DNA of 64,000 nt from an uncultured Candidatus Saccharibacteria bacterium (lineage in GTDB: Bacteria; Patescibacteriota; Minisyncoccia; Phycocordibacterales; Phycocordibacteraceae), in assembly GCA_964650475.1 (NCBI GenBank), contig CAZYRK010000002.1:12087-76086 (forward strand). The letters run 5' to 3'. The notes beneath the pieces are model-generated. The model had not been told where the DNA came from. It was given only the letters and a program-made list of their open reading frames with translations, and searched no databases. Both the position numbers and the translations under genes were made by a program. Below, piece by piece: positions 14,783 to 61,520 of this stretch; within the stretch, counting starts at the first letter, position 1, and each line of letters starts with the position of its first letter.

Positions 14783-15039
14783 CGTCACGGCTTGCCGACA
14801 CTACAAAACCCGATAGTCAGTTAGGATTTAATATTAAAACTATTACAATTTTTTGTCACTATATCTGCCACGCAACTAAGGTGTGTAACTTAATTGCCAG
14901 CACGAAACAGAAACAAAACATATTGTGGATAATCACACTACTTTTATTGACTAAAAAATATCATTAATATAATATTCAAGATACGAAATGCCGGGGAGCG
15001 AGCGTGATGCCGCGATCCGGTTTTTCTATTTGTTTTTGC

Positions 15040-32826: not shown

Positions 32827-33037
32827 ACATTTAAGTGTTAGTGGTATTAAAAGGTACCTTTTTTATTTTCTTTCACGTTCGGTTTTTCACGGGTTTTTCA
32901 CAGATACAAATCGCCCAAGCGTTTTGTATCTACATCCTCCTCTTTACGGCGTAGTAAGTCAATATTGTGTTTTTTGAGAAATACTTGATAATTTGTGGCG
33001 GTTTTTTGGGAAGGTGCGGGTGGGTTGGAGATTCGGG

Positions 33038-33092
33038 AGCACACACAAAGCGCCGCGCGGGCTTCGCCCGCGCGGCGCTTTGTGTGTGCTCC
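33038..33092. terminator. Long GC-rich hairpin (27-bp stem)
   Basis: GGGAGCACACACAAAGCGCCGCGCGGGC-TTC-GCCCGCGCGGCGCTTTGTGTGTGCTCCC lies downstream of gene 33130-33606. Confidence 0.45.
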
Positions 33093-33129
33093 CGTTATAA
33101 CTATATATAAAGGAGTGTTTTTTTGAAAA

Positions 33130-39984: not shown

Positions 39985-40127
39985 AACAAAGAACCTCCTT
40001 TCGGAACTCGGGGCACCTCGCTAATGAGGTTTCTTATTTCCCGGTACCAATGGCGACACACTACCATATTAAAACAACAACGCCAAATTTCCCAGCTAAT
40101 GTGCTATGTTGTCAAGTTCTTATTTTT

Positions 40128-41273
40128 TTACTTCCCGTGTTCAAGAGCTTCGATACCCACGAGAGTGCCGTCTGTAAGAAAATCGAGCATCGCTCCACCT
40201 CCGGTTGAAACAAAAGAAAATTTATCACTAATGCCAAGCGACTCTATCGCGGAAACGGTATCTCCACCACCAACTATCGACTGTGCGGAACTCTTTGCAA
40301 TAGCAAAAGCGAGTTTTGTATCTCCGTCCGTAAAGCCTTTTTCATAATTCCCGAGAGGTCCGTTCCATAGCACGGTTTTTGCTTCTTTGACCAAAGAAGC
40401 AAAAACCGTGCTAGTCTCTTCCCCAACATCAAAAGCCGACTCGTCTTCGCCGATATTGTCTAGTGCGCGCGGTATTTTTTTTGTAGCGTCTTCATCGGCT
40501 TTTGCCACGACGACGTCTACCGGCAAAACCAAATTTTCATTTTTAAGAAGTGCGCGCACGCTGTCTTGGTTTGCTCCCGAAACCCGAGAAGTACCCATCT
40601 TATAGCCCTTTGCGAGCAGAAAGTCATTTGCAAGTGCTCCACCTACAGCAACATGTTCATACGAGTTAAGAAGAGTTTTTATGACAGGCTCTTTTGTATC
40701 AAATTTTGCTCCACCGATAACAGCGAGAGAGGGGTGTTCCGGAGTGCGCGCTTCGGACAAGTTTTTTACTTCCTCTGCAAGCAAAAGACCTGCGTACGAA
40801 GGCAAGAACTTTGGCACCCCAACGATGGAAGCGTGTTCACGATGGCACGTATCAAAAGCGTCTTGCACAAAAACATCTGCAAGGCTCGCCAGAGCGCGGG
40901 CGAAGCCCGCGTCATTTCCCACTTCACCGGGGTTCTGCCTTAAATTTTCAAGCAACAGCACTTCCCCACCCTTAAGCGATTGCTTCATCGCCACCGCCAA
41001 AGGACCGATAGATTCAGATGAAAATCTGACCCTTCTCAGCTTGGAAGCGAGTGCTCGGTACACAGGCATTAATGTTTCTGTTGGAGACCTTCCGATGTGT
41101 CCGCAGACAATCACTTTTGCTCCGGCGTTTGTAAGAAATTTAATAGTCGGTATCGTGCTACGTAAACGAAAATCACTTGTTATGTCTCCGTTTAGCACCG
41201 GCTCGTTTAGTGGAGCGCGAACAAGCACGATCGCTCCGGCAAGAGAAGGAATATTTCGAACGGTTTTCATCAT
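40128..41273 (-). CDS. pgk: Phosphoglycerate kinase
   Basis: 381 aa, typical PGK N- and C-domain signatures. Confidence 0.92.
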   Translation of the reverse strand: MMKTVRNIPSLAGAIVLVRAPLNEPVLNGDITSDFRLRSTIPTIKFLTNAGAKVIVCGHIGRSPTETLMPVYRALASKLRRVRFSSESIGPLAVAMKQSLKGGEVLLLENLRQNPGEVGNDAGFARALASLADVFVQDAFDTCHREHASIVGVPKFLPSYAGLLLAEEVKNLSEARTPEHPSLAVIGGAKFDTKEPVIKTLLNSYEHVAVGGALANDFLLAKGYKMGTSRVSGANQDSVRALLKNENLVLPVDVVVAKADEDATKKIPRALDNIGEDESAFDVGEETSTVFASLVKEAKTVLWNGPLGNYEKGFTDGDTKLAFAIAKSSAQSIVGGGDTVSAIESLGISDKFSFVSTGGGAMLDFLTDGTLVGIEALEHGK

Positions 41274-42016
41274 ACACTTACAGCACCGACAAGAGCCTTA
41301 AATGAATCTGGCTCAACAGCGGAGTGCCCTATGAGAAACCCGTCCACACCACTTCCCTCCGCAAGCACTCGAATATTGTCCGGCTCTACAGAACCTCCGT
41401 AAAGTATTTTTGTGCGCAAAGAGCCCCTACCAGGCAGAAATTCCGAAAGAGCTTTTCGAATATAAAGTATCATCTCAGTGAGATCTGCTGTTGTTATCGA
41501 TTCGGACGATGTCTTTCCTATAGCCCAAACAGGTTCATAGGCTATCAATATTTTAATACGTTCTTTTTGTGAAAGAGGTTCAAAAGCGGAGGATATTTCT
41601 TCTCGTAGAAAGGAGAGGTATCCTCCATTGTCGTCGCGCGAGCGCTCACCTACGCACAAGATAGGAGAAAGCCCCTGCGCGAGCGCGCGCTCAAGCTTTT
41701 GTGATATCTCAGAATTAGTCTCTCCTCTTGCTCTGCGCTCCGAGTGCCCGACAATAGCATACGTCGCTCCAGCCTCGCGAGCGGAGCCTGCGGTCACCTC
41801 GCCTGTTTGCGCGCCACCAGATATAGTAGAAATATCTTGCACAGCAAAAGCAAGTTTTGAATTGTTTTTTTCCGCAAGCAAACCCAAAAAGACGGTCGGC
41901 GGGGCGATGATAAAATCGTGCTCGGTGCTTCCCGCTAGCCTCTTTGCAACGGATACAAGCTTTTTTGCTTTTTCCAAAGACTCGACATACGCTTTCCAGT
42001 TCGTAGCAATAATCAT
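41270..42016 (-). CDS. tpiA: Triosephosphate isomerase
   Basis: 248 aa, MIIATNWKAY.. and ..AYEPVWAIGTG.. TIM signatures. Confidence 0.93.
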   Translation of the reverse strand: MIIATNWKAYVESLEKAKKLVSVAKRLAGSTEHDFIIAPPTVFLGLLAEKNNSKLAFAVQDISTISGGAQTGEVTAGSAREAGATYAIVGHSERRARGETNSEISQKLERALAQGLSPILCVGERSRDDNGGYLSFLREEISSAFEPLSQKERIKILIAYEPVWAIGKTSSESITTADLTEMILYIRKALSEFLPGRGSLRTKILYGGSVEPDNIRVLAEGSGVDGFLIGHSAVEPDSFKALVGAVSV

Positions 42017-42092
42017 TGGTCGTATTGTATCATTTTACCTGCCAAGTTTTTTGGTCTAAGATATCGTTTGAACAGATTATCCGTATTTTTGG

Positions 42093-43583
42093 TTACTCTT
42101 GTCTCCAGTCAATGAATTTGTACGTGGAGGAAGTGGTCGGAGTAAATGGCGGGGGGTTAATAAACTGAGACCTGTCAAAAGAGTTGGTACGAGTTGCGTA
42201 TCCAGAGAAAAACGTATTTCCGCATGCTGGAGTTCCGCTCCACTGTGTACCTGTTCTCTTTTGTGAAACAACTGTTCCGTACATAGAAAGAGAATTTTTT
42301 TGACTGTATTCCAAATATCCTTGCACAAAAGTCCGCGTCTCCCAATCCCAAAAAGAAGTGCAAGCATATCCGTTACGTCCGAAAGCACCGTTTTGAGCTA
42401 CGAAGATACCATACAAAGTCATATCCTCCGGTGAATCTGCGCCGATAAGAACATCGTTTTGCGCCATAAGAGTAAGCCCTGCGCTCGGTGAATTGTAGGT
42501 GATACTATTTTTAAGAACAGCGTCGGTCTCTATTCCTGCAGTATCAATATTTGCAGAAACAAGAGTGACCTTTCGACTAAGCACCCCCTCGACCCATATA
42601 TTGTCTTCTACAAAAATAAGTGCGCAATCTGCTGGGATTGTGTATGTACCCATCAAAGTATCGGACGCAATTACGGTATGGTCGTTCCACCCAAAATCGC
42701 TTGTAGCATCGACTGGAAGTGCATCAAGAGTATATGTTCTCGTTACTTTATATACAGTTATAGTTCCGTTGCCGTTAAAATCAAGCAAGTACCCACGGTG
42801 ACTCGCTCTACTGCTACCAGTGCTATATCGTGGAAAATAAAGACCTTGTGTCTGTGCGATAGACCTAAGTGAGGAGAAGTTAGCGGAGATAGCATTAAAA
42901 TCTATCTGCGGAGTAGGGTATTTCCACAAATTCTGATTATCTCCGGAACCAAACACACCATTTACCCATTGGTCCGGAACACAGCCAAAATTACGTGTAC
43001 AATCCCAGCTTGAAACAGAGCTTGTAACAGGGGCGTTCGCTGTTCCGTCCATACGTATGCCTCCGTTTGAGTGATATGGTCCGTTAATTATTCTGTCCGG
43101 ACCTGCCCAAACGCTTCCGTTAATAACATACGAATACTGCGCGACTGTGGGTTGCGCATAATGGGCGACAATCGTACGAGATATGTTTGGATAAGCTTCA
43201 GGAACTCCGGTCGACTTTATATCAATAGAAGTAGTCTTTCCGCATGATTGGGTTCCGGAAATATCGAGAGTGTACGTTCCTATAACACCGCCTTCTGGAT
43301 CGTTATAATCGATAGTGTACGGGCCCGGCAAACCTGTACCATTTTGCAGATCGTTGGGAAAATGCGCGAGATGCCACCGGTAATATTCGACGCCAGCTTC
43401 GGCAATAGATAGGGCGTTGCTTTTTGCACGGTTTGCTATCTCGAAATTGTTTTCTGAAAGAACGTAACCAGAGAGACCAGAGAAGACCGTAAAAAAGATT
43501 GCTCCAAAAACGAGCGCGAGCAACATAATGGAACCGGATTTATGATTATAGGGCGTACGTTGCATAAAAATATAATACCGCAT
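42093..43583 (-). CDS. PilX-like type IV pilus minor pilin/assembly protein
   Basis: 496 aa, N-terminal TM helix then ..NRAKSNALSIAEAGVEYYRWHL.. (PilX N-terminal-domain-like). Confidence 0.5.
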   Translation of the reverse strand: MRYYIFMQRTPYNHKSGSIMLLALVFGAIFFTVFSGLSGYVLSENNFEIANRAKSNALSIAEAGVEYYRWHLAHFPNDLQNGTGLPGPYTIDYNDPEGGVIGTYTLDISGTQSCGKTTSIDIKSTGVPEAYPNISRTIVAHYAQPTVAQYSYVINGSVWAGPDRIINGPYHSNGGIRMDGTANAPVTSSVSSWDCTRNFGCVPDQWVNGVFGSGDNQNLWKYPTPQIDFNAISANFSSLRSIAQTQGLYFPRYSTGSSRASHRGYLLDFNGNGTITVYKVTRTYTLDALPVDATSDFGWNDHTVIASDTLMGTYTIPADCALIFVEDNIWVEGVLSRKVTLVSANIDTAGIETDAVLKNSITYNSPSAGLTLMAQNDVLIGADSPEDMTLYGIFVAQNGAFGRNGYACTSFWDWETRTFVQGYLEYSQKNSLSMYGTVVSQKRTGTQWSGTPACGNTFFSGYATRTNSFDRSQFINPPPFTPTTSSTYKFIDWRQE

Positions 43584-44167
43584 TATTGTGCGCTAATGTT
43601 GCGTAATTTTGCACCCGCGGAAAGAGTAAAGTCTTCCGGGGCGCGTGCGGGGTTTAAGTTTACGGTTATTGTCGTGTTTATGGACGTAATATCCGTAATG
43701 TTAACAGGTGAATAAAGTTCCGTTCCCGCAGAATCGTAATAACGGAAAATCGGTGTGCTTGTATCTGTGCGTACATACGTTGCAACAGTATCCGTAATAT
43801 CCGGCGTGTCCGAGTACACCGGAGGAACACCGGTCGGGATAGTTATACTTCGATAAAGAGTAGTGCCACTTAAATAATATTGAACTCTATCTACCACATC
43901 GTCGCCTTTCAAATCGACATAAAAAGTAACACTCGAATCTGTAGCGCTAACGATAGGGTACGCCCCGTCTTCTCCGTATGAGGCTTCGCGCAAATCACGC
44001 ATCGAGTTAATAATCCCGATGTGAGCACTTTCTACAGCTTTTGTTTGCTCAAAAACATACGCGTTTGTTCTGTAGAAATACTGTATAACAAACATCATCG
44101 CACTAAAGACAATGGCAAACATTGTCACTGTTACGATTGTTTCAATGAGAGTAAAACCGCGCGTCAT
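43583..44167 (-). CDS. Prepilin-type N-terminal cleavage/methylation domain pseudopilin
   Basis: MTRGFTLIETIVTVTMFAIV is a class III signal. The start is set at this Met; the ORF extends to 44257. Confidence 0.65.
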   Translation of the reverse strand: MTRGFTLIETIVTVTMFAIVFSAMMFVIQYFYRTNAYVFEQTKAVESAHIGIINSMRDLREASYGEDGAYPIVSATDSSVTFYVDLKGDDVVDRVQYYLSGTTLYRSITIPTGVPPVYSDTPDITDTVATYVRTDTSTPIFRYYDSAGTELYSPVNITDITSINTTITVNLNPARAPEDFTLSAGAKLRNISAQ

Positions 44168-44222
44168 GTCTTTATGATAGCACTGGGCTCGGCTACGCCG
44201 AGCCCAGTGCACACATTTAAGG

Positions 44223-45932
44223 TTAAGGGAAAGATGCAACATAGAAAACTTGTCCATCTACTTCGACATTTGAAAACGTTGTTGTTGTATAACCTGTCTT
44301 GGATATATCAACTGAATAATCAGTACTTGTGGCCAGATTTCCAAAGTACGCGGTTCCACATAAAGAAGTATCAACTGTTTTTGAGTATCCTTTTGCCGTT
44401 TCCGAGAGGCTTACACTTGCGTCTTGTACCGGGAAATTACTCGCGTCTGTCACTGTTACAAGCAATTGGTTTGTTGTTTTATCTCCTAGTATAAACGAGT
44501 TCGTACGGAAATCTCCCGGTCCCATAAAATACGGCGGGGTGGCGCAAGCGTCCAGTACATCATACCCACCAAATACAATAGAGTATTTATCTCCTTCGAG
44601 AGACATTTCTCGAACACCAAGAGCATCTGTTGTGGTTGATATTACAGTTTTATAAATAGGAGCTCCAGCACCCGTTGTACCTATCTCTTTAGTGCCCGTT
44701 AGTGTGAAGCCAGCATCTGCCAAAGGAGTCGGCGCGGTTTTGTAGCTGACCGTCCAATCAAAAAGCTTTGGCACTATCGAGGAGTTGCTTGTGGTTGCAA
44801 TAACACCAAGCACCAGTGTCGAGTATGTGCTGGTTGCAACATTTGAAAGGCTTACTGGGAAGCTACTAAACCCCTCGCTATTTCCAGAAAGCACTGTGTC
44901 TGGCAAAAGCGCTCCAGAAGAATCATATACACGAACACGCATGCCAGAACCTGATGATATTCCGGTATCCGCAGAAAGGCTTGTCCACGAATACAAATTG
45001 CTCGGGGCTATATTTGTAGATGTCGCATACCCCAAAAGTGCTCCGTCGACAAGCTCGAGATCTCCCAAAACAGCATCCATACTTGAAGTTGCGGAAAGTA
45101 GAGATTCATCTGCAAAAGTATCGCTGAACTCCGCTGAAGCTGGCGGAGAGTAAGTAAGTAGAGTTAGTGATGAGAGCAAGTCAATCGGAAAAGTGTACGC
45201 TGTCGTTTCATCTTTCACGACGGTTAGATACCCCGGATTTGGATTTTGGTTAAAAGAATCGCGAACATAAGTTTGAGCGGAAGAATAATCATCTTTCGAT
45301 ACATAAACCTGATACTCGGTAGAAGTCGGAGCGCCACCGAGCAAAACCTCTCCAGAAGTATCTGAAAATGTAGAGAGGTCGATTGCCGGAGCTGTACTAG
45401 CGTTTACAATACGAACCGTTGCCCCTGCAATCGGTGTGCCTGAGAAATTTACAACGTGTATTAAAAGAGTACCTCCACCATTTGTCGTTTCTATCCCTAC
45501 CGGTGAAAAGTTTGAAAGCAGAGTAACTTCTCTTGTAGCCCCCGCCGAAACATATGACACAACTATTTTGGCAAGTTTATAATCGGTCGTGATGCCGTTT
45601 GTGTCGTCTGCACCAAGCCCGTCTGCTGGATCGTCAATATACTGAATGTATGTCCGAACAGTATATGTAACGCCGTCGAGCACTATCGTTTTGTTTTGCG
45701 GTATGTTACCTGCCGGAATACCGCCGATAGTGCCAAGAGCGTCGTACGACAAGCCGCGCAAATATTCCATCTGAGATCCTGCAAGCGATGAAGCCCCCGC
45801 GCGCGCCTTTGCAAGACTCGACACGAGTATCGATGCTCGCAAGATTCCCAAAAGCGATACGAATATTATAAGAACCAGCGCCGAGCCGACGATAACATCG
45901 ATAAGTGTCATACCCCGTGCGCGAATATACAT
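44223..45932 (-). CDS. Large PilV-like pilin-family protein
   Basis: ..ARGMTLIDVIVGSALVLIIFVSLLGIL.. prepilin-like N-terminus followed by ~550-aa Ser/Thr-rich domain. The ORF in the track runs to 46121 through the repeat region, so the start is chosen at MYIRARGM. Confidence 0.55.
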   Translation of the reverse strand: MYIRARGMTLIDVIVGSALVLIIFVSLLGILRASILVSSLAKARAGASSLAGSQMEYLRGLSYDALGTIGGIPAGNIPQNKTIVLDGVTYTVRTYIQYIDDPADGLGADDTNGITTDYKLAKIVVSYVSAGATREVTLLSNFSPVGIETTNGGGTLLIHVVNFSGTPIAGATVRIVNASTAPAIDLSTFSDTSGEVLLGGAPTSTEYQVYVSKDDYSSAQTYVRDSFNQNPNPGYLTVVKDETTAYTFPIDLLSSLTLLTYSPPASAEFSDTFADESLLSATSSMDAVLGDLELVDGALLGYATSTNIAPSNLYSWTSLSADTGISSGSGMRVRVYDSSGALLPDTVLSGNSEGFSSFPVSLSNVATSTYSTLVLGVIATTSNSSIVPKLFDWTVSYKTAPTPLADAGFTLTGTKEIGTTGAGAPIYKTVISTTTDALGVREMSLEGDKYSIVFGGYDVLDACATPPYFMGPGDFRTNSFILGDKTTNQLLVTVTDASNFPVQDASVSLSETAKGYSKTVDTSLCGTAYFGNLATSTDYSVDISKTGYTTTTFSNVEVDGQVFYVASFP

Positions 45933-45996
45933 ATTATTTACATAATACAACACGTTCACCAAACGTACACAAAAACTTTTGCGTATCCTTCTTTGT

Positions 45997-46524
45997 TTGG
46001 GAAGGTTAGACCTTCCCAACTTCCCAAGAACCATCTTTGGCACTTTTTGGGAAGGTCTAACCTTCCCAACTTTCCACAAATAAAAACCTAAGCGGTATGC
46101 CGACACTCGTTTTGCGGACACTAAGTGTCCGCAAGTGGGCTAGAAATCGTAATCGGAGAGTATGTCGAGTTTGTGTTCCATGCGCTCGCGAGCGAACTCT
46201 TTAAAAGACCCGGGCTCATTGAAGATTTCTCCGAGGAGCTCAGTGTCTAAAATCGGTGATACATTTTTCGAATTCTCGACAGGAGCACTCGTTTTGCGGA
46301 CACTAAGTGTCCGCAAGTGGGAAAGAAAGTGTTTGCGTAGCATGTTTTGCGGACACTTAGTGTCCGCAAAACAAGTGTTTGCGTTTCGTCCGTGCCATAT
46401 TGTTTTGTAATGTAGCGTGTGGTTTTTCATCAGGAGAGACCAGCTAACATTTTGGGAAGGTCTAACCTTCCCAACTTCCCGAGAACCATCTTTGGCACTT
46501 TTTGGGAAGGTTAGACCTTCCCAA
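45997..46524. repeat. Cluster A of 23-bp perfect-palindrome repeats R1 (TTGCGGACAC-T[A/T]A-GTGTCCGCAA) and R2 (TTGGGAAGGT-[TAG/CTA]-ACCTTCCCAA) with shared flanks
   Basis: R2 is at 45997, 46047, 46452 and 46502. R1 is at 46112, 46294 and 46347. Connector segments are shared (GAACCATCTTTGGCACTTT; CCACAAATAAAAACCTAAGCGGTA). Confidence 0.85.
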
Positions 46525-46570
46525 CTTGAGTGGGTGTAATTCATGTGAAAATTGCGGTAAACAAAAAGCC

Positions 46571-46618
46571 CTGCGACATTAAAACTTTTTAAAAAGTTTT
46601 AATGTCGCAGGGCTAAAC
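46571..46618 (-). terminator. 48-bp perfect palindrome terminator after pilB-pilC-orf139
   Basis: AGCCCTGCGACATTAAAACTTTTT|AAAAAGTTTTAATGTCGCAGGGCT is followed on the minus strand by TTTTTG. Confidence 0.5.
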
Positions 46619-46638
46619 TCAAACAATTGAAACTACCT

Positions 46639-47058
46639 CTAATTTGGTATCGCACTTGTCTTCGCGACAATCAGAACGCTCTTTTTACGAGTTGCCGAAC
46701 AAAAACCGTTCGTTCCCCACTCATTAACACGGAGATACGCCGCGCAAAAATCAAGCAGTGTCAATTTCTTATCAATCTCAACCAAAACAACTTTTGGCGT
46801 GTATATCGGAAATCCGCACTTCTGAGCAAGTGCTGACAAGCTACCAATCTTCGCAAGAGGAATAGCAATGTTTGAGTCGAAAGCTTTCTGTTCAAGCACT
46901 TCTTTCGGAGTAAACCTCGATACCAAAAGCATTCTCGCAAAACACTCGTGAAGCGTTGCTTCTCTTGAGGGCACGAGCATCGTCAACAAAACCTCATCTG
47001 ACAACTCTACTGTTTTAACAGTACTAAAAACCAATGTATCTCTTTTACACTCACACAT
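46639..47058 (-). CDS. Hypothetical protein in pilus locus
   Basis: 139-aa ORF between pilC and the repeat cluster, no family call. Confidence 0.4.
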   Translation of the reverse strand: MCECKRDTLVFSTVKTVELSDEVLLTMLVPSREATLHECFARMLLVSRFTPKEVLEQKAFDSNIAIPLAKIGSLSALAQKCGFPIYTPKVVLVEIDKKLTLLDFCAAYLRVNEWGTNGFCSATRKKSVLIVAKTSAIPN

Positions 47059-47192
47059 TACACTACCTCCTTACCTTTAAGGTTACTTTTTGTTCTCCTC
47101 AATCAGCAGGAGAACTATACCAAATTACAAACTTCTACTATTAAAAATACCATGCTACTTTCAATAAAACCACCGAGTATCCTCTCGAGAAA

Positions 47193-48404
47193 CTACATTG
47201 CTGAGGATAGCGAATAGATAGGTGAAATAATAGCCACGGCAAAGATACCGACACCCGTACCGATAAGAAGCATTAGCACCGGCTCTATTATTGTGGAAAG
47301 GTCTTTTGTCCTTCTCTCAACATCTTCTTCATAATAATCTGCGACTTGTTTTAGCATTCCTGCGACCTGCCCTGTCTCTTCGCCGACCTCAATCATGTCG
47401 GAAAACATAGTCGGGTACCTTTTCTCGTGCTCAAGAAACGCAGAGGAAAGAGTGTCGCCTTTGCGCACACGGTCTTCGGCTTCTTTTATTATTGAAGCAA
47501 ATTCTTTTGCACTGACGACTTCACGAGTTATCGCAAGAGCGTCGAGCATATCGACACCGGAAGAAAGTAGCGAGGAAAGAGTTCGTGATGTACGCGCCGC
47601 GTATGTCTCTTTTACCAAGTCACCAATAACCGGAATAACTAGCGCTACTCGAAACAAGAAATTACCTCCAAACTCAGATTTTGCAAAAGCCATAACAGCG
47701 GAAACAAATGCTCCGACACCAAAAAGGAAAAGTATCGTGTGGTTGATGAGGAAGTTTGATATCGCTACAATAACGCGCGTAGCAAGAGGAAGTTTCACTC
47801 CGAGCTGTGAAAAGGTTGCCGTAAGTGTCGGCACCACGAACATAAGCATAAGTACAAAAATAATCGCCATGGCGATGATGATTATGCTTGGATAAATCAT
47901 CGCTCCGCGTACTTTTTTCGTGAGGTTTCGTGCGCGTTCCATTTGCTTGCCGACAATAGCGAGCGACTCTGCCAAAGTACCGCCCTCTTCACCTGCATGT
48001 GCCATTGCCACGAAAAGTTTTGGGAATAGCTTAGGGTGTTCCGCTAAAGATTCGTGAAAAGCTGAACCTTTTTTGATAGATTCACTGACAGAAACAAGCA
48101 CCGCTTTCAAGTGCCTATTGCGAGTTTGTCTTTCTACAACAGCAACCGAACGCGAAAGAGTGAGCCCTGCGTGAAGCATAGAGCCCAGGTTTCTTGTCAT
48201 AAGAACAATATCGTCTGCGGACACGCCCGTGCCAAAAGTAATGTTAAGCCATGAAGGCATGGAAAGTCCGGCACCTTCTTTAAGCGAAGTAACCTGAGAA
48301 CCTTCTTTTTCAATTTGTTCGTAAACAGCAAAACGAGAAGTCGCTTCAACGACGCGTTTCTCTTCGTTTCCGCTTTTGTTTTTGATTGTAATGCTGTATT
48401 TCAT
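47193..48404 (-). CDS. pilC: Type IV pilus assembly platform protein PilC (GspF family)
   Basis: 403 aa, duplicated GspF domains with TM segments. Confidence 0.85.
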   Translation of the reverse strand: MKYSITIKNKSGNEEKRVVEATSRFAVYEQIEKEGSQVTSLKEGAGLSMPSWLNITFGTGVSADDIVLMTRNLGSMLHAGLTLSRSVAVVERQTRNRHLKAVLVSVSESIKKGSAFHESLAEHPKLFPKLFVAMAHAGEEGGTLAESLAIVGKQMERARNLTKKVRGAMIYPSIIIIAMAIIFVLMLMFVVPTLTATFSQLGVKLPLATRVIVAISNFLINHTILFLFGVGAFVSAVMAFAKSEFGGNFLFRVALVIPVIGDLVKETYAARTSRTLSSLLSSGVDMLDALAITREVVSAKEFASIIKEAEDRVRKGDTLSSAFLEHEKRYPTMFSDMIEVGEETGQVAGMLKQVADYYEEDVERRTKDLSTIIEPVLMLLIGTGVGIFAVAIISPIYSLSSAM

Positions 48405-48433
48405 ATTCGGGGGGTTATGGCTTAGCTAAATCA

Positions 48434-50185
48434 TTAATCAGATATTGCCCGTAAGACTTCCTCAAGCGAAGTAATACCGCGTGCTGCTTTATAAAGACCA
48501 TCCTCAAGCATTGTGAGCATGCCTTCTTTGCGAGCCTGCTCCTCGATAACGTCGATAGTGCCTTCATGCAAAATCTTTTCACGTATGGCGGGCGATACTG
48601 AAAGAATCTCGTGAATACCTATACGACTATGGTACCCGTCTTCGCACTCTGTTGACGGTTTTGGTCGATAAAAAGGAACTTCATCAAGAGAGGTGCCGGG
48701 TTTAATCATCTTTTCATTCAGAAGAGACTGCAATGCAACGTCAAAATGCTCCGGCGCCGTAACTTTGGCGCGTTCTTCTTCCGTAAGGGTGTACTGTTCT
48801 TTTTCCGTACATAGTTGTCGAACAAGTCTTTGCCCGACAATAACCCGCAGAGTTGAAACAAGCAAAAACGGCTCAATACCCATGTCGATTAAACGAGGTA
48901 CTGCCCCTGCAGCGCTGTTTGTGTGGATTGTGGAAAGAACAAGGTGCCCGGTAAGTGCGGCGTTTATAGCGAGACTCGCCGTCTCGCCGTCTCGAATCTC
49001 ACCAACCATAATAATATTCGGATCTTGGCGCATAAGCGAGCGCAACCCGGTTGCAAAAGTAAACCCGATGGAAGGATTAACCTGTGTTTGGTTTACGCGC
49101 TTCATCTGGTACTCGATAGGATCCTCGATGGTTGAAATATTTACATCCGGAGTGTTTAAAAGGTCGAGAACCGTATAAAGAGTTGTTGTTTTACCACTTC
49201 CGGTTGGTCCTGAGATAAGGATAATGCCGGTCGTTTGTCGTGTAGCACGATGAATATGCTCCATTGTTTCGCCATGGAAACCCAAAGTTTCCAAAGTAAG
49301 AAAGCCCCCTGTTTCGCGAAGTAGACGCATTACGACCTTTTCACCATAGAAAACAGGTAGGAGCGAGACACGAAACGACACTTTTTCTGTCTCTGTTTCC
49401 ATTTTGAAACGCCCGTCTTGCGGGAGACGTTTCTCGTCTAGTTTTAGGTTTGAAAGAACTTTAATACGCGCAACAATCCCCGGACCGGCCTGCTTTGGGA
49501 GAGTCATTGCGTCGTGCAATATTCCGTCGATGCGGTATCGCACGAGCACTTCGTCTTCCATCGGCTCGATGTGAATATCGGAAGCTTCCTGCACAATAGC
49601 GTGACGAAGCAAAGAATCCACGATTCGCACAATCGGCAAATCCTCCGCCATCTTTTTCAAATCCTCACCGGACGCGTTTCCTTTTTCATCACCCTGAACA
49701 ACCTTGATACGCCCTGCTTCTTTGGCGATGATATCTCCAAACTCTTCTTTTAGGGATTTTTGGTATTGCAAAAGAGCGTGTTTGAGCGAATCCTCATCTG
49801 TTAGGCGCGGGAGAATTCTTAGCCCTGTTTTTTTACGCACAGAGTCTATAGCTGCGAGGTCTTGCGTATCGAGCATTGCCACTTCGAGCCCTTTCTCGGT
49901 TTTCTTGTACGCAATAATCGAGTTCGTTCGCGCAATCGGTTCCGGAATAAGCGCCAAAACATCTTCTGAGATTTTCAAATCTTTCAAGCTTACGAAAGGT
50001 ATCCCGAGAACATACGCTTTAATGCGCCGAAGCGCATCCGAGGTTAAAAGCCCCCGGCTTACCAACACGTCGCCTACGGATTGTTTGCTTTTCTTTGATT
50101 CTTCAACTGCGGAATCTATATCTTTACGAGCAACCAAGCCCGAATCGATTATGAATTTCTTTAGATCGCTTTCTATAATCTGCAT
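48434..50185 (-). CDS. pilB: Type IV pilus assembly ATPase PilB (GspE family)
   Basis: 583 aa, Walker A GPTGSGKTTT, GspE N-domain. Confidence 0.9.
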   Translation of the reverse strand: MQIIESDLKKFIIDSGLVARKDIDSAVEESKKSKQSVGDVLVSRGLLTSDALRRIKAYVLGIPFVSLKDLKISEDVLALIPEPIARTNSIIAYKKTEKGLEVAMLDTQDLAAIDSVRKKTGLRILPRLTDEDSLKHALLQYQKSLKEEFGDIIAKEAGRIKVVQGDEKGNASGEDLKKMAEDLPIVRIVDSLLRHAIVQEASDIHIEPMEDEVLVRYRIDGILHDAMTLPKQAGPGIVARIKVLSNLKLDEKRLPQDGRFKMETETEKVSFRVSLLPVFYGEKVVMRLLRETGGFLTLETLGFHGETMEHIHRATRQTTGIILISGPTGSGKTTTLYTVLDLLNTPDVNISTIEDPIEYQMKRVNQTQVNPSIGFTFATGLRSLMRQDPNIIMVGEIRDGETASLAINAALTGHLVLSTIHTNSAAGAVPRLIDMGIEPFLLVSTLRVIVGQRLVRQLCTEKEQYTLTEEERAKVTAPEHFDVALQSLLNEKMIKPGTSLDEVPFYRPKPSTECEDGYHSRIGIHEILSVSPAIREKILHEGTIDVIEEQARKEGMLTMLEDGLYKAARGITSLEEVLRAISD

Positions 50186-50984: not shown

Positions 50985-51048
50985 CAAAACAAAGCGCACC
51001 GCGGGAAAGTTTCTAAAGAAACTTTCCCGCGGTGCGCTTTGTTTTACG
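50985..51048. terminator. Long bidirectional hairpin terminator (24-bp stem)
   Basis: AAAACAAAGCGCACCGCGGGAAAGTTTC-TAAA-GAAACTTTCCCGCGGTGCGCTTTGTTTT. Confidence 0.5.
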
Positions 51049-54354: not shown

Positions 54355-54549
54355 GGTATTTATATAAAAACTATACTACAGCTCTACTTAAAGTACATGC
54401 GCATTTCTACGGTAGCCCAATAACGCGGGCAAAAGACCTCCGGTCTTTTGCCCGCGTTATCCCCACCCACACACAAACAACCTGCCCCGCACAACACATC
54501 TGATATACAATCAAGACATTAACTTAATATTAATATCCACTTTTCTTTT

Positions 54550-55526: not shown

Positions 55527-55578
55527 ACCCACACACACAACAGCCCCGACCTTAAAAGGTCGGGGCTGTTGTGTGTGT
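55527..55578 (+). terminator. Hairpin terminator
   Basis: ACACACAACAGCCCCGACC-TTAAAA-GGTCGGGGCTGTTGTGTGTG. Confidence 0.5.
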
Positions 55579-55617
55579 GGGTTTTGGGTGACAAACAGGT
55601 AAATGGTTTGGTGTCTG

Positions 55618-55955
55618 TTTTGCGGACACTTTTGCGGACACTAAGTGTCCGCAAACCGATGTTTGCGTTTCGTCCGCGTCATATTGTTTTTTTTGCGGAC
55701 ACTAAGTGTCCGCAAACCGAGACCTTCCCAACTTTTTTCCACAAATAAAAACCTAAGCGGTACGTTGCGATGGATAGGGTAAGACATGTCCGAGCGGCCC
55801 GGAGCATGTTTTGCCGACACTTTTGCGGACACTTAGTGTCCGCAAAACATGCTCCGCAAAAACTCTCTGCCGCTTAGTGTCGGCAGAGAGTTTCGCGTGT
55901 GGTTTTGGGGTTTAGATAGACCGGCTAACATTTTGTGAAGGTTAGCCCTCCCCAA
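55618..55955. repeat. Cluster B of R1/R2 palindrome repeat family
   Basis: R1 is at 55632, 55693 and 55823, with partial copies and a related hairpin CTCTCTGCCG-CTTAGTGT-CGGCAGAGAG. There is a half R2 at 55722, a degenerate R2 at 55933, and the same connector CCACAAATAAAAACCTAAGCGGTA as cluster A. Confidence 0.8.
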
Positions 55956-61326: not shown

Positions 61327-61382
61327 ATACCTTTCATAGTACACCGCCAAACAAGCAGTGTCTGCGCTTGCTAAGCCCAAGC

Positions 61383-61430
61383 CCACACCAAAGCGCCGTG
61401 CCTTAAAAGGCACGGCGCTTTGGTGTGGGC
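61383..61430. terminator. Hairpin terminator
   Basis: CCCACACCAAAGCGCCGTGCC-TTAAAA-GGCACGGCGCTTTGGTGTGGG. Confidence 0.5.
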
Positions 61431-61449
61431 TTGGTCAAGTACAACAATG

Positions 61450-61520
61450 TGCGGGATAGGAGAATCGAACTCCTGCTCTCAGTTTGGAAAACTGATGTTC
61501 TACCATTAAACTAATCCCGC
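61450..61520 (-). tRNA. tRNA-Gly (anticodon UCC), CCA not encoded
   Basis: Minus strand GCGGGATTAGTTTAATGGTAGAACATCAGTTTTCCAAACTGAGAGCAGGAGTTCGATTCTCCTATCCCGCA folds into a cloverleaf. Anticodon loop is TTTCCAA, T-arm is AGGAG-TTCGATT-CTCCT. Confidence 0.8.

Follow-up and report, generated by a model that had tools for sequence, protein, structure and literature searches.

We report on two families of short perfect palindromes, R1 and R2, and on the decayed transposase gene that lies among them, in a 64,000-nucleotide stretch of DNA from an uncultured Candidatus Saccharibacteria bacterium (assembly GCA_964650475.1, contig CAZYRK010000002.1, positions 12,087 to 76,086), hereafter the window. 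The palindromes occupy two intergenic clusters. Cluster A lies between the likely terminator of a pilB-pilC-orf139 operon (46567-46614), which is itself a 48-bp perfect palindrome with 24-nt arms and no loop, and a pilin-like gene (44223-45935, 570 aa) that is followed by an N_methyl pseudopilin gene. Cluster B follows another terminator and adjoins a thyX-like gene, with no pilus genes nearby. An earlier reading of the letters, the original prediction, had explained cluster A either as operators of two paralogous dimeric DNA-binding proteins at the head of a pilin operon or as the terminal inverted repeats of a tandemised miniature mobile element. The features of the two clusters are listed below (palindromes are given as unstranded).

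45997-46019, unstranded: R2 copy 1, centre TAG, an exact match; its single-stranded DNA (ssDNA) forms a hairpin, with a stem of 10 bp and a loop of 3 nt (-9.5 kcal/mol).
46020-46046, forward strand: 27-nt spacer of the left R2 doublet, beginning with a partial R2 right arm, CTTCCCAA.
46047-46069, unstranded: R2 copy 2, centre CTA, forming with copy 1 the inverted REPIN-like doublet 45997-46069.
46070-46111, forward strand: connector CTTTCCACAAATAAAAACCTAAGCGGTATGCCGACACTCGTT, containing an R1-variant half-site, GCCGACACT, at 46099-46107.
46112-46134, unstranded: R1 copy 1, centre TAA, 5 nt past the stop codon of the transposase remnant; hairpin of -10.9 kcal/mol.
46140-46290, reverse strand: remnant of a Y1 HUH (RAYT/TIRYT-like) transposase gene, with its stop codon at 46140-46142 and codons 46143-46277 corresponding to residues 185-229.
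46294-46316, unstranded: R1 copy 2, centre TAA, an exact match.
46347-46369, unstranded: R1 copy 3, centre TTA, with arms reaching 46343-46373; with copy 2 it forms the inverted doublet 46286-46378.
46377-46392, forward strand: connector GTTTGCGTTTCGTCCG, found again in cluster B at 55661-55676.
46412-46451, forward strand: connector GTAGCGTGTGGTTTTT...GACCAGCTAACATT, found again in cluster B at 55895-55932 and beside R2 at other loci.
46452-46524, unstranded: right R2 doublet, made of R2 copy 3 (46452-46474, CTA), a spacer (46475-46501) and R2 copy 4 (46502-46524, TAG).
55618-55955, unstranded: cluster B, built from the same modules as cluster A, with R1 at 55632, 55693 and 55823.
55618-55629 and 55809-55820, unstranded: left-arm half-sites of cluster B (extra R1 arms).
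55721-55731, unstranded: R2 right-arm half of cluster B, followed by a connector at 55732-55773.
55863-55890, unstranded: imperfect R1-variant palindrome of cluster B.
55933-55955, unstranded: degenerate R2 of cluster B.

R1 has the form TTGCGGACAC-TWA-GTGTCCGCAA and R2 the form TTGGGAAGGT-TAG/CTA-ACCTTCCCAA. The three R1 and four R2 copies that the original prediction had placed in cluster A were all recovered without mismatch, and 100 dinucleotide-preserving shuffles gave no match to either pattern with up to three mismatches allowed. The window holds six R1 and four R2 copies in total, all perfect, and one degenerate R2. Both palindromes had been described as 10-bp arms around a stop-codon-like triplet. 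Their perfect symmetry stands, but R1 is better described as an 11+1+11 palindrome with A or T at its centre, and R2 as the same build with one centre base changed: the commoner R2 outside the window, TTGGGAAGGTC-W-GACCTTCCCAA, is an 11+1+11 palindrome centred on CTG/CAG, from which the TAG/CTA centre of the window lineage differs by a single base.

The clusters are mosaics of these palindromes and of recurring linkers. The 27-nt spacer CTTCCC(A/G)AGAACCATCTTTGGCACTTT occurs twice in cluster A (46020-46046 and 46475-46501), and the conserved connectors noted previously are indeed shared by the two clusters: CTTTCCACAAATAAAAACCTAAGCGGTA and GACC(A/G)GCTAACATT are both reused in cluster B, while CTTTCCACAAATAAAAACCTAAGCGGTATGCCGACACTCGTT recurs there at 55732-55764 and next to R2 in about 10 metagenome loci. 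Start-to-start spacing in cluster A is irregular (50, 65, 182, 53, 105 and 50 nt), and this, together with the two repeat types and the recurring "spacers", distinguishes it from a CRISPR array, as had been held. The right R2 doublet is a direct repeat of the left one, 91% identical, with only the two centres swapped. An R2 doublet folds into a hairpin with a 23-bp stem (-27.2 kcal/mol, z = -9.1), and the R1 doublet, an inverted repeat (I2) with 31-nt arms that are 97% complementary, into one with a 31-bp stem (about -35 kcal/mol). Inverted arrangement is found in 7 of 10 neighbouring R2 pairs, and an additional partial arm stands before many copies, in the form TTTTGCGGACAC-TTTTGCGGACAC-TAA... 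for R1 and ...CCTTCCCAA-CTTCCCAA for R2. In 29 of 49 copies, R1 has the tetranucleotide CACT on one or both sides at a distance of no more than 9 nt. The R2 centre correlates with its flanking connectors in about 10 of 12 cases and is flipped in the others; its use as a strand marker was rejected on account of those flips.

The 45 codons of the remnant in cluster A are 100% identical, as protein (tblastn) and as DNA, to the 3' end of an intact gene on L006, a 1284-nt contig retrieved by an R1 scan of one genome per species, in which five R1 copies surround a gene of 229 codons. DNA identity between the window and L006 extends from GAGAATTCGAAAAATG to the TAG stop, and the order of stop codon, CCCACT and R1 is common to the remnant and the intact gene. 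Two lesions separate the remnant from an intact gene. Upstream of it, 60 nt have been lost between two GAGAATTCGAAA repeats, positions 46278-46290 being the last homologous bases before this internal deletion; and an R1 copy replaces everything before residue ~160, the N-terminal three quarters of the gene. Both lesions are carried by L075, a related-strain contig that is 82.6% identical to the window in the adjacent pilin-like gene, and the transposase gene therefore died before the window and L075 lineages split. The 134-aa open-reading frame (ORF) at 46140-46544 had been dismissed as a spurious translation of the palindrome; the ORF exists, and its last 45 codons are a genuine transposase remnant, so that it is the tail of a transposase pseudogene read through into the repeats. 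Cluster B contains no transposase remnant.

The junction between stop codon and R1 varies among these loci. It is tandemly expanded in L006 (1088-1166) into three 24-nt units, CTAGCCCACTTGC(C/G)GACACT(A/T)AGT, comprises several partial arms in L075 (1749-1860) and a single unit in the window, and is a hotspot of slippage or repeated insertion. The window and L075 differ also in a 50-nt unit, R2 copy 1 plus spacer, which is absent at the same locus in L075.

The L006 protein passes the gathering score of the Pfam family Y1_Tnp (IS200-like transposase; 28.6 against 23), and homologues of 226-262 aa carry NHFH and FQG/FEG motifs. Across 28 aligned homologues, the histidines of N-H-x-H (HuH), one tyrosine and the asparagine five residues further on are invariant. 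A search of the PDB with the single L006 sequence (phmmer) returned nothing useful, and a profile search gave weak ISDra2 matches only (E ~0.04). The AlphaFold model of P0003, 67% identical to the L006 protein (pLDDT 91.5), has Y1 HUH transposases as all of its top 24 PDB fold matches (IS608 TnpA, 4ER8, ISDra2 and IS200, with 2VJV, 2A6M and 2XM3 among the entries). The longest alignment of the model is to 4ER8, the REP hairpin-bound transposase of E. coli (198 aligned columns, TMq 0.47). Against 1.84 billion representative sequences, the profile retrieved 392 clusters at 50% identity with E <= 1e-30 and about 12,000 at 1e-10, which makes these homologues a sizeable clade inside the large Y1 family. 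The homologues bear the names Patescibacteria or Taylorbacteria.

The genes fall into two clades, with identities of 54-83% within clade 1, 48-89% within clade 2 and 34-46% between them, and the palindrome core is specific to the clade at all 14 loci: all seven clade-1 genes are flanked by palindromes with the core GGACAC-NWN-GTGTCC, and all seven clade-2 genes by GAAG(G)TC-N-GAC(C)TTC. The palindromes compared were chosen by their position next to genes, as a choice by palindromicity would have made the test of covariation circular, and their outer stem positions vary between genomes by paired changes that preserve the palindrome. Exact R1 copies flank two genes (L006 and L105) and the truncated remnant at one further locus (window and L075). 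Further genes of the R1 clade, namely the first gene of L094 and those of L096 and L102-L105, are flanked by palindromes such as TGCCGACACT-W-AGTGTCGGCA, TGATGGACAC-GTA-GTGTCCATCA and TGTGGACACT-A-AGTGTCCACA. Palindromes of R2 type abut the paralogous gene in L084, L039, L026, L052 and L056, on both sides in the first three, and a shorter-stem form, GGAAGTC-W-GACTTCC, flanks the gene of L099 (Candidatus Taylorbacteria) and the second gene of L094. On that contig a gene of each clade is present, accompanied by the palindrome of its clade, and 3.7 kb separate the two. The pairing follows the rule of one repeat family per gene reported for REPtrons (PMC6006769).

Further palindrome types were seen alongside these. 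A third Y1 gene, more distant than the others, lies between copies of AAAGGCGACGCCTTT in L009 (11545-12240), and ATGTGGGACGTC-N-GACGTCCCACAT, TTGGGAGAGTC-W-GACTCTCCCAA and TTGGACAAGTC-W-GACTTGTCCAA repeat within single contigs (L025, L033, L072 and L087). They point to a larger superfamily in which the centre GTC-N-GAC is conserved.

Away from the window, a metagenome scan returned 86 loci with R2. The window-type TAG/CTA form occurs in 33 other loci, mostly on VAP*-prefixed contigs (the prefixes borne also by L003, L029 and L090, which are 99-100% identical to the window), and there the two families co-occur, with 43 R2 and 31 R1 copies. Open frames of 150 codons or longer make up 79% of the bases but contain no more than 11 of the 74 copies (binomial P = 3e-32), and 20 of the 74 are found in the last 150 nt at one end of a contig, which is what repeats that break assemblies should show. 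The unit present in high copy is the palindrome itself; connectors recur 2-13 times only. In the loci studied there are 49 copies of the R1 core, 10 of them adjoining the L006 and L105 genes. Viral contigs contained no exact R1 or R2, and thus give no sign of a phage origin. A single R1 in a Streptomyces contig, the only one besides L006 in the genome collection, has no family context and was set aside as a coincidence.

We interpret R1 and R2 as two families of repetitive extragenic palindrome (REP)-like repeats, each the cognate hairpin of its own clade of Y1 HUH transposases, and assign this interpretation a probability of roughly 85%. Cluster A is then the decayed REPtron/TIRtron-like home locus of an R1-type gene, colonised by the second repeat family: the remnant is bracketed by R1 copies and these in turn by inverted R2 doublets, and cluster B is an accumulation of the same modules without any gene. 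That cluster A stands upstream of the pilin-like gene is due to available intergenic space or to the former site of the transposase gene, not to pilin regulation. The two alternatives of the original prediction each held part of this picture. There are indeed two paralogous proteins, but they are Y1 HUH transposase homologues instead of dimeric operator-binding regulators; a miniature mobile element came near the truth, except that each palindrome is a self-contained hairpin unit and not a terminal inverted repeat of one element.

By analogy with E. coli TnpA-REP, IS608 and ISDra2, each palindrome would extrude as a 10-bp hairpin when the DNA is single-stranded, for instance at a replication fork. 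The transposase is predicted to bind this hairpin and to cut nearby by means of an HUH-bound metal and the catalytic tyrosine; the ends would be rejoined, and small hairpin units would be excised or copied and reinserted between genes and beside resident copies. The expected products are singlets, inverted doublets, half-sites and mosaic clusters, and alternative processing of circular intermediates would yield head-to-head and tail-to-tail dimers as well as arrays. The organisation of REPtrons and TIRtrons and the cleavage of ssDNA by E. coli TnpA-REP have been described (PMC6006769, PMC3733652). The swapped centres of the two doublets in cluster A do not stem from inversion, because the arrangement cannot arise by inverting either the spacer or the unit as a whole. 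More speculatively, a circular R2 plus spacer integrating into either arm of a resident R2 would account for swapped centres with the same spacer orientation, and independent flips of the centres might do so too.

In functional terms the system would, by analogy, be REPtron-, BIME- and REPIN-like. It shares with the REPs and bacterial interspersed mosaic elements (BIMEs), the E. coli REPtron and the Pseudomonas REPIN-RAYT system, in which RAYT stands for REP-associated tyrosine transposase, palindromes that are short, extragenic and numerous. Different palindrome types are interleaved with recurring linkers, as in BIME mosaics; inverted doublets fold into one long hairpin, as in REPINs; a Y1 HUH gene is flanked by its own palindromes, one family per gene clade, as in REPtrons; and the predicted fold resembles the E. 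coli RAYT 4ER8. Extragenic repeats, gene flanking, doublets and a Y1 HUH protein are thus all present, while the canonical GT[AG]G foot, a score above the NCBIfam RAYT cut-off and the Y-x3-NP motif are all missing. The proteins described here are ~230 aa long, with F-Q/E in place of W-Q/E, and their hosts are Patescibacteria, whose genomes are very small, whereas RAYTs are found mainly in larger genomes (PMC6006769).

The closest described relatives are probably the TIRYT/TIRtron group, compared here by its published description (Di Nocera et al. 2013, PMC3733652; subclass 2.1 of Quentin et al. 2018, PMC6006769; Group 1 of Bertels et al. 2017). Likenesses to TIRYTs are a length of ~240 aa, the HuH motif NH[YF]H and F-Q for W-Q. 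TIRtrons likewise have flanking repeats that lack GTAG, and some of their terminal inverted repeats (TIRs) are self-complementary, occur in dimers or clusters and are moderately abundant. Seven of the eight positions of the TIR motif GGGGWSAS agree with the R1 arm GCGGACAC, whose core GGACAC fits GGWSAS, and the variant arms AGGGACAC and GTGGACAC likewise agree with GGGGWSAS at 7 of 8. Differences are that R2 (GGGAAGGT) falls outside this motif, that each flank here carries a full palindrome instead of a single arm belonging to a long terminal inverted repeat, that Pfam detects no C-terminal helix-turn-helix (HTH)-like domain at E <= 0.1, and that the tyrosine motif is one residue longer. Atypical structures without GTAG are known also for subclass 2.6 and class 3 (PMC6006769).

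Several observations weigh against the interpretation of R1 and R2 as REP-like families with cognate transposases. No 5' GT[AG]G stands at the foot of the hairpins: R1 and R2 begin with TTG, their flanks lack GTAG and GTGG, and GTAG occurs solely inside the centre of the L096 variant palindrome. The palindromes are perfect (11+1+11), whereas REPs are imperfect or bulged, and the E. coli RAYT requires mismatches near the loop, a strengthened palindrome having abolished cleavage (PMC3733652). The only NCBIfam match of the L006 protein is REP_Tyr_transpos (NF047646), at 31.8 bits, far below the cut-off of 80, and its tyrosine motif, Y-I-M-V-K-N-P (Y-x4-NP), is one residue longer than the class 2 motif Y-x3-NP. 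The 64-kb window contains no intact transposase gene of either clade, so that current activity in this genome is no more than a possibility. The copy counts cover the window and the metagenome loci; several other genomes show only 2-4 gene-adjacent palindromes within 20 kb, and it may be that just a few lineages have seen proliferation. The binding and cleavage steps and the route through ssDNA, finally, are predictions by analogy.

Among the alternatives, the one that survives best is that the hairpins, whatever their origin, are kept as structural elements of RNA or DNA, serving as terminators, mRNA stabilisers or operon insulators. It is compatible with the REP-like interpretation, and we consider it unlikely. 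The hairpins are stable and lie between genes, R1 is often bracketed by T-runs and A-runs, E. coli REPs have such roles (PMC3733652), and the six R1 and four R2 copies of the window are perfect though the local transposase is long dead, its truncation being shared with the 82.6%-identical strain. That perfection is, however, equally well accounted for if the copies spread recently from an intact gene like that of L006. A terminator scan called none at R1 or R2, and long canonical terminator hairpins already stand at the gene ends. Rfam, at gathering thresholds, identified one tRNA in the whole window (61450-61520) and nothing at either cluster, and in E-value mode over 45800-46700 returned only sub-threshold matches to generic hairpins (miRNA precursors).

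Less probable still is that the palindromes are the ends, and miniatures resembling palindrome-associated or miniature inverted-repeat transposable elements (PATE/MITE), of an autonomous IS200/IS605-type insertion sequence that hops whole, and not of a domesticated single-copy RAYT. The Y1 HUH core, hairpins by both gene ends and a presumed ssDNA mechanism are common to IS200/IS605 elements such as IS608 and ISDra2. Palindrome, gene and palindrome form a compact unit of ~0.8 kb, the flanking hairpins of L096 are in direct orientation (GTA centre on both sides), as in IS608, many genomes show gene-flanking copies only, gene contexts differ between genomes, and the P0003 model fits IS608 and ISDra2 TnpA as well as it fits 4ER8. 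The proteins are nevertheless ~80 aa longer than IS200 TnpA (226-262 against ~150 aa), with a motif ending in NP where TnpA has Y-x3-Q; no tnpB partner was found in seven neighbourhoods of the transposase genes; and the RAYT model is the best NCBIfam match. Contexts and copies also speak against an element that moves as a whole: the identical proteins of the P0018 and P0044 sets (11 and 17 contigs) appear in one genomic context each, three places being shown for each and further similar ones collapsed, so that the number of places is a lower bound, while the palindromes far outnumber the genes, with the 49 R1-core copies set against two genes and one truncated locus.

It is very improbable that the palindromes are operators of two paralogous dimeric transcription factors regulating the pilin operon. 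Perfect two-fold symmetry suits dimer binding, and cluster A does lie between the pilB-pilC terminator and the start of the pilin-like gene. An intact R1-clade gene occupies the same slot, between pilC and pilin genes, in L096 (8655-11322) and likewise in L097 and L098; the PilC there is only 28% and the transposase 53% identical, and shared ancestry, site preference and coincidence are each possible. Other genes of the R1 clade, however, stand in unrelated contexts, cluster B has no pilus genes nearby, cluster A encloses a transposase remnant, and no sigma-70-like promoter was found on the pilin strand inside it. The original prediction had itself named wide dispersal as the mark of a generic element without regulatory role, and dozens of unrelated intergenic sites, as well as both flanks of transposase genes, carry these palindromes. 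The idea that cluster A is an assembly artefact, which had been named at the outset as a refuting outcome, or a chance arrangement has a negligible probability: contigs of other assemblies do tend to break in or near the cluster, but it is no artefact, because the independent contigs L090 (window 40016-46205, 99.4%) and L029 (window 46374-48709, 100%) cover one half each and the related-strain contig L075 runs through R2-R1-remnant-R1 in the same layout, and the chance expectation is 0, with the same sequences present in many samples.

A broader proposal, which we put forward tentatively and regard as possible but far from established, is that of a distinct, Patescibacteria-wide REP-RAYT-like superfamily. 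It would consist of ~230-aa Y-x4-NP proteins and perfect 11+1+11 palindromes with the centres CAC-TWA-GTG and GTC-W-GAC, without a GTAG tag and with several co-resident families, and would still be active in some lineages as a breakpoint of genome rearrangement. The breakpoint role is suggested because a junction in L075 joins cluster A to a locus 8 kb away. At L075:1991-2132, following R1 and a half-arm (window 46104-46134), the contig is 99% identical to window positions 54429-54529, while the rest is 82.6% identical to window positions 44317-46316, and the overlap at the junction is just 8 nt. The junction could be a rearrangement at the repeat cluster that displaced the 8-kb pilB-pilC-clpP-nusA segment, or a chimeric contig.

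These results remove a false lead, since cluster A is no pilin regulatory switch, and indicate that the 134-aa ORF is better annotated as a transposase pseudogene plus repeats. They also document REP-like families and their Y1 transposase partners in Patescibacteria, a group of very small genomes, whereas surveys place such genes chiefly in larger ones (PMC6006769). A full-text literature search found no paper joining RAYT or REPIN with Patescibacteria; the sole co-mention of "REP-associated tyrosine transposase" and "Candidate Phyla Radiation" concerns another topic. The kind of system is thus already known and apparently undescribed in this phylum. Simple perfect palindromes with one protein clade each make a natural test set for how the HUH tyrosine transposases read hairpins, and the R1/R2 repeats break short-read assemblies of such genomes.

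Some further observations concern copies outside the clusters. Lone intergenic half-sites lie far from both clusters, an R1-variant arm (CTTGCCGACACTA) at 14791-14803 and an R2 arm (TTTTTGGGAAGGTG) at 33004-33016; for matches of 11-12 nt the chance expectation is below 0.05 per window, and they may be relics of lost copies. The 23-mer of R2 in its CTG/CAG form stands within a flank that diverged contigs have in common, with synonymous-looking changes, at L057:2289, L081:11044, L093:164, L044:786, L089:6267, L065:4748 and L038:1924. The pattern suggests that R2 was inserted in frame within a protein-coding gene at these seven sites. Insertion of this kind has been reported for some REPs.

The remaining observations concern the neighbourhood. 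The closeness of NusA in the window to proteins that bear the names Candidatus Kaiserbacteria or Parcubacteria/Paceibacterota (79-81% identity) places the host among the Patescibacteria, as a Paceibacteria/Kaiserbacteria-like bacterium. A 139-aa ORF lies between the terminator and pilC (46639-47058, reverse strand) without a Pfam match, which is called as a gene in L001, L002 and L004; these short-read contigs from other samples all stop at the centre of the terminator palindrome, 46585. The window contains many unusually long intergenic hairpins with perfect stems of 15-27 bp, for example at 33034-33094, 50986-51045, 55527-55582 and 61377-61434, most of which have a sequence of their own and which apparently act as terminators. 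At related loci, R1 sometimes stands at the tip of a long stem of this kind, in the arrangement ATGTAGCGCGGGGTTT-R1-AAACCCCGCGCTACAT.

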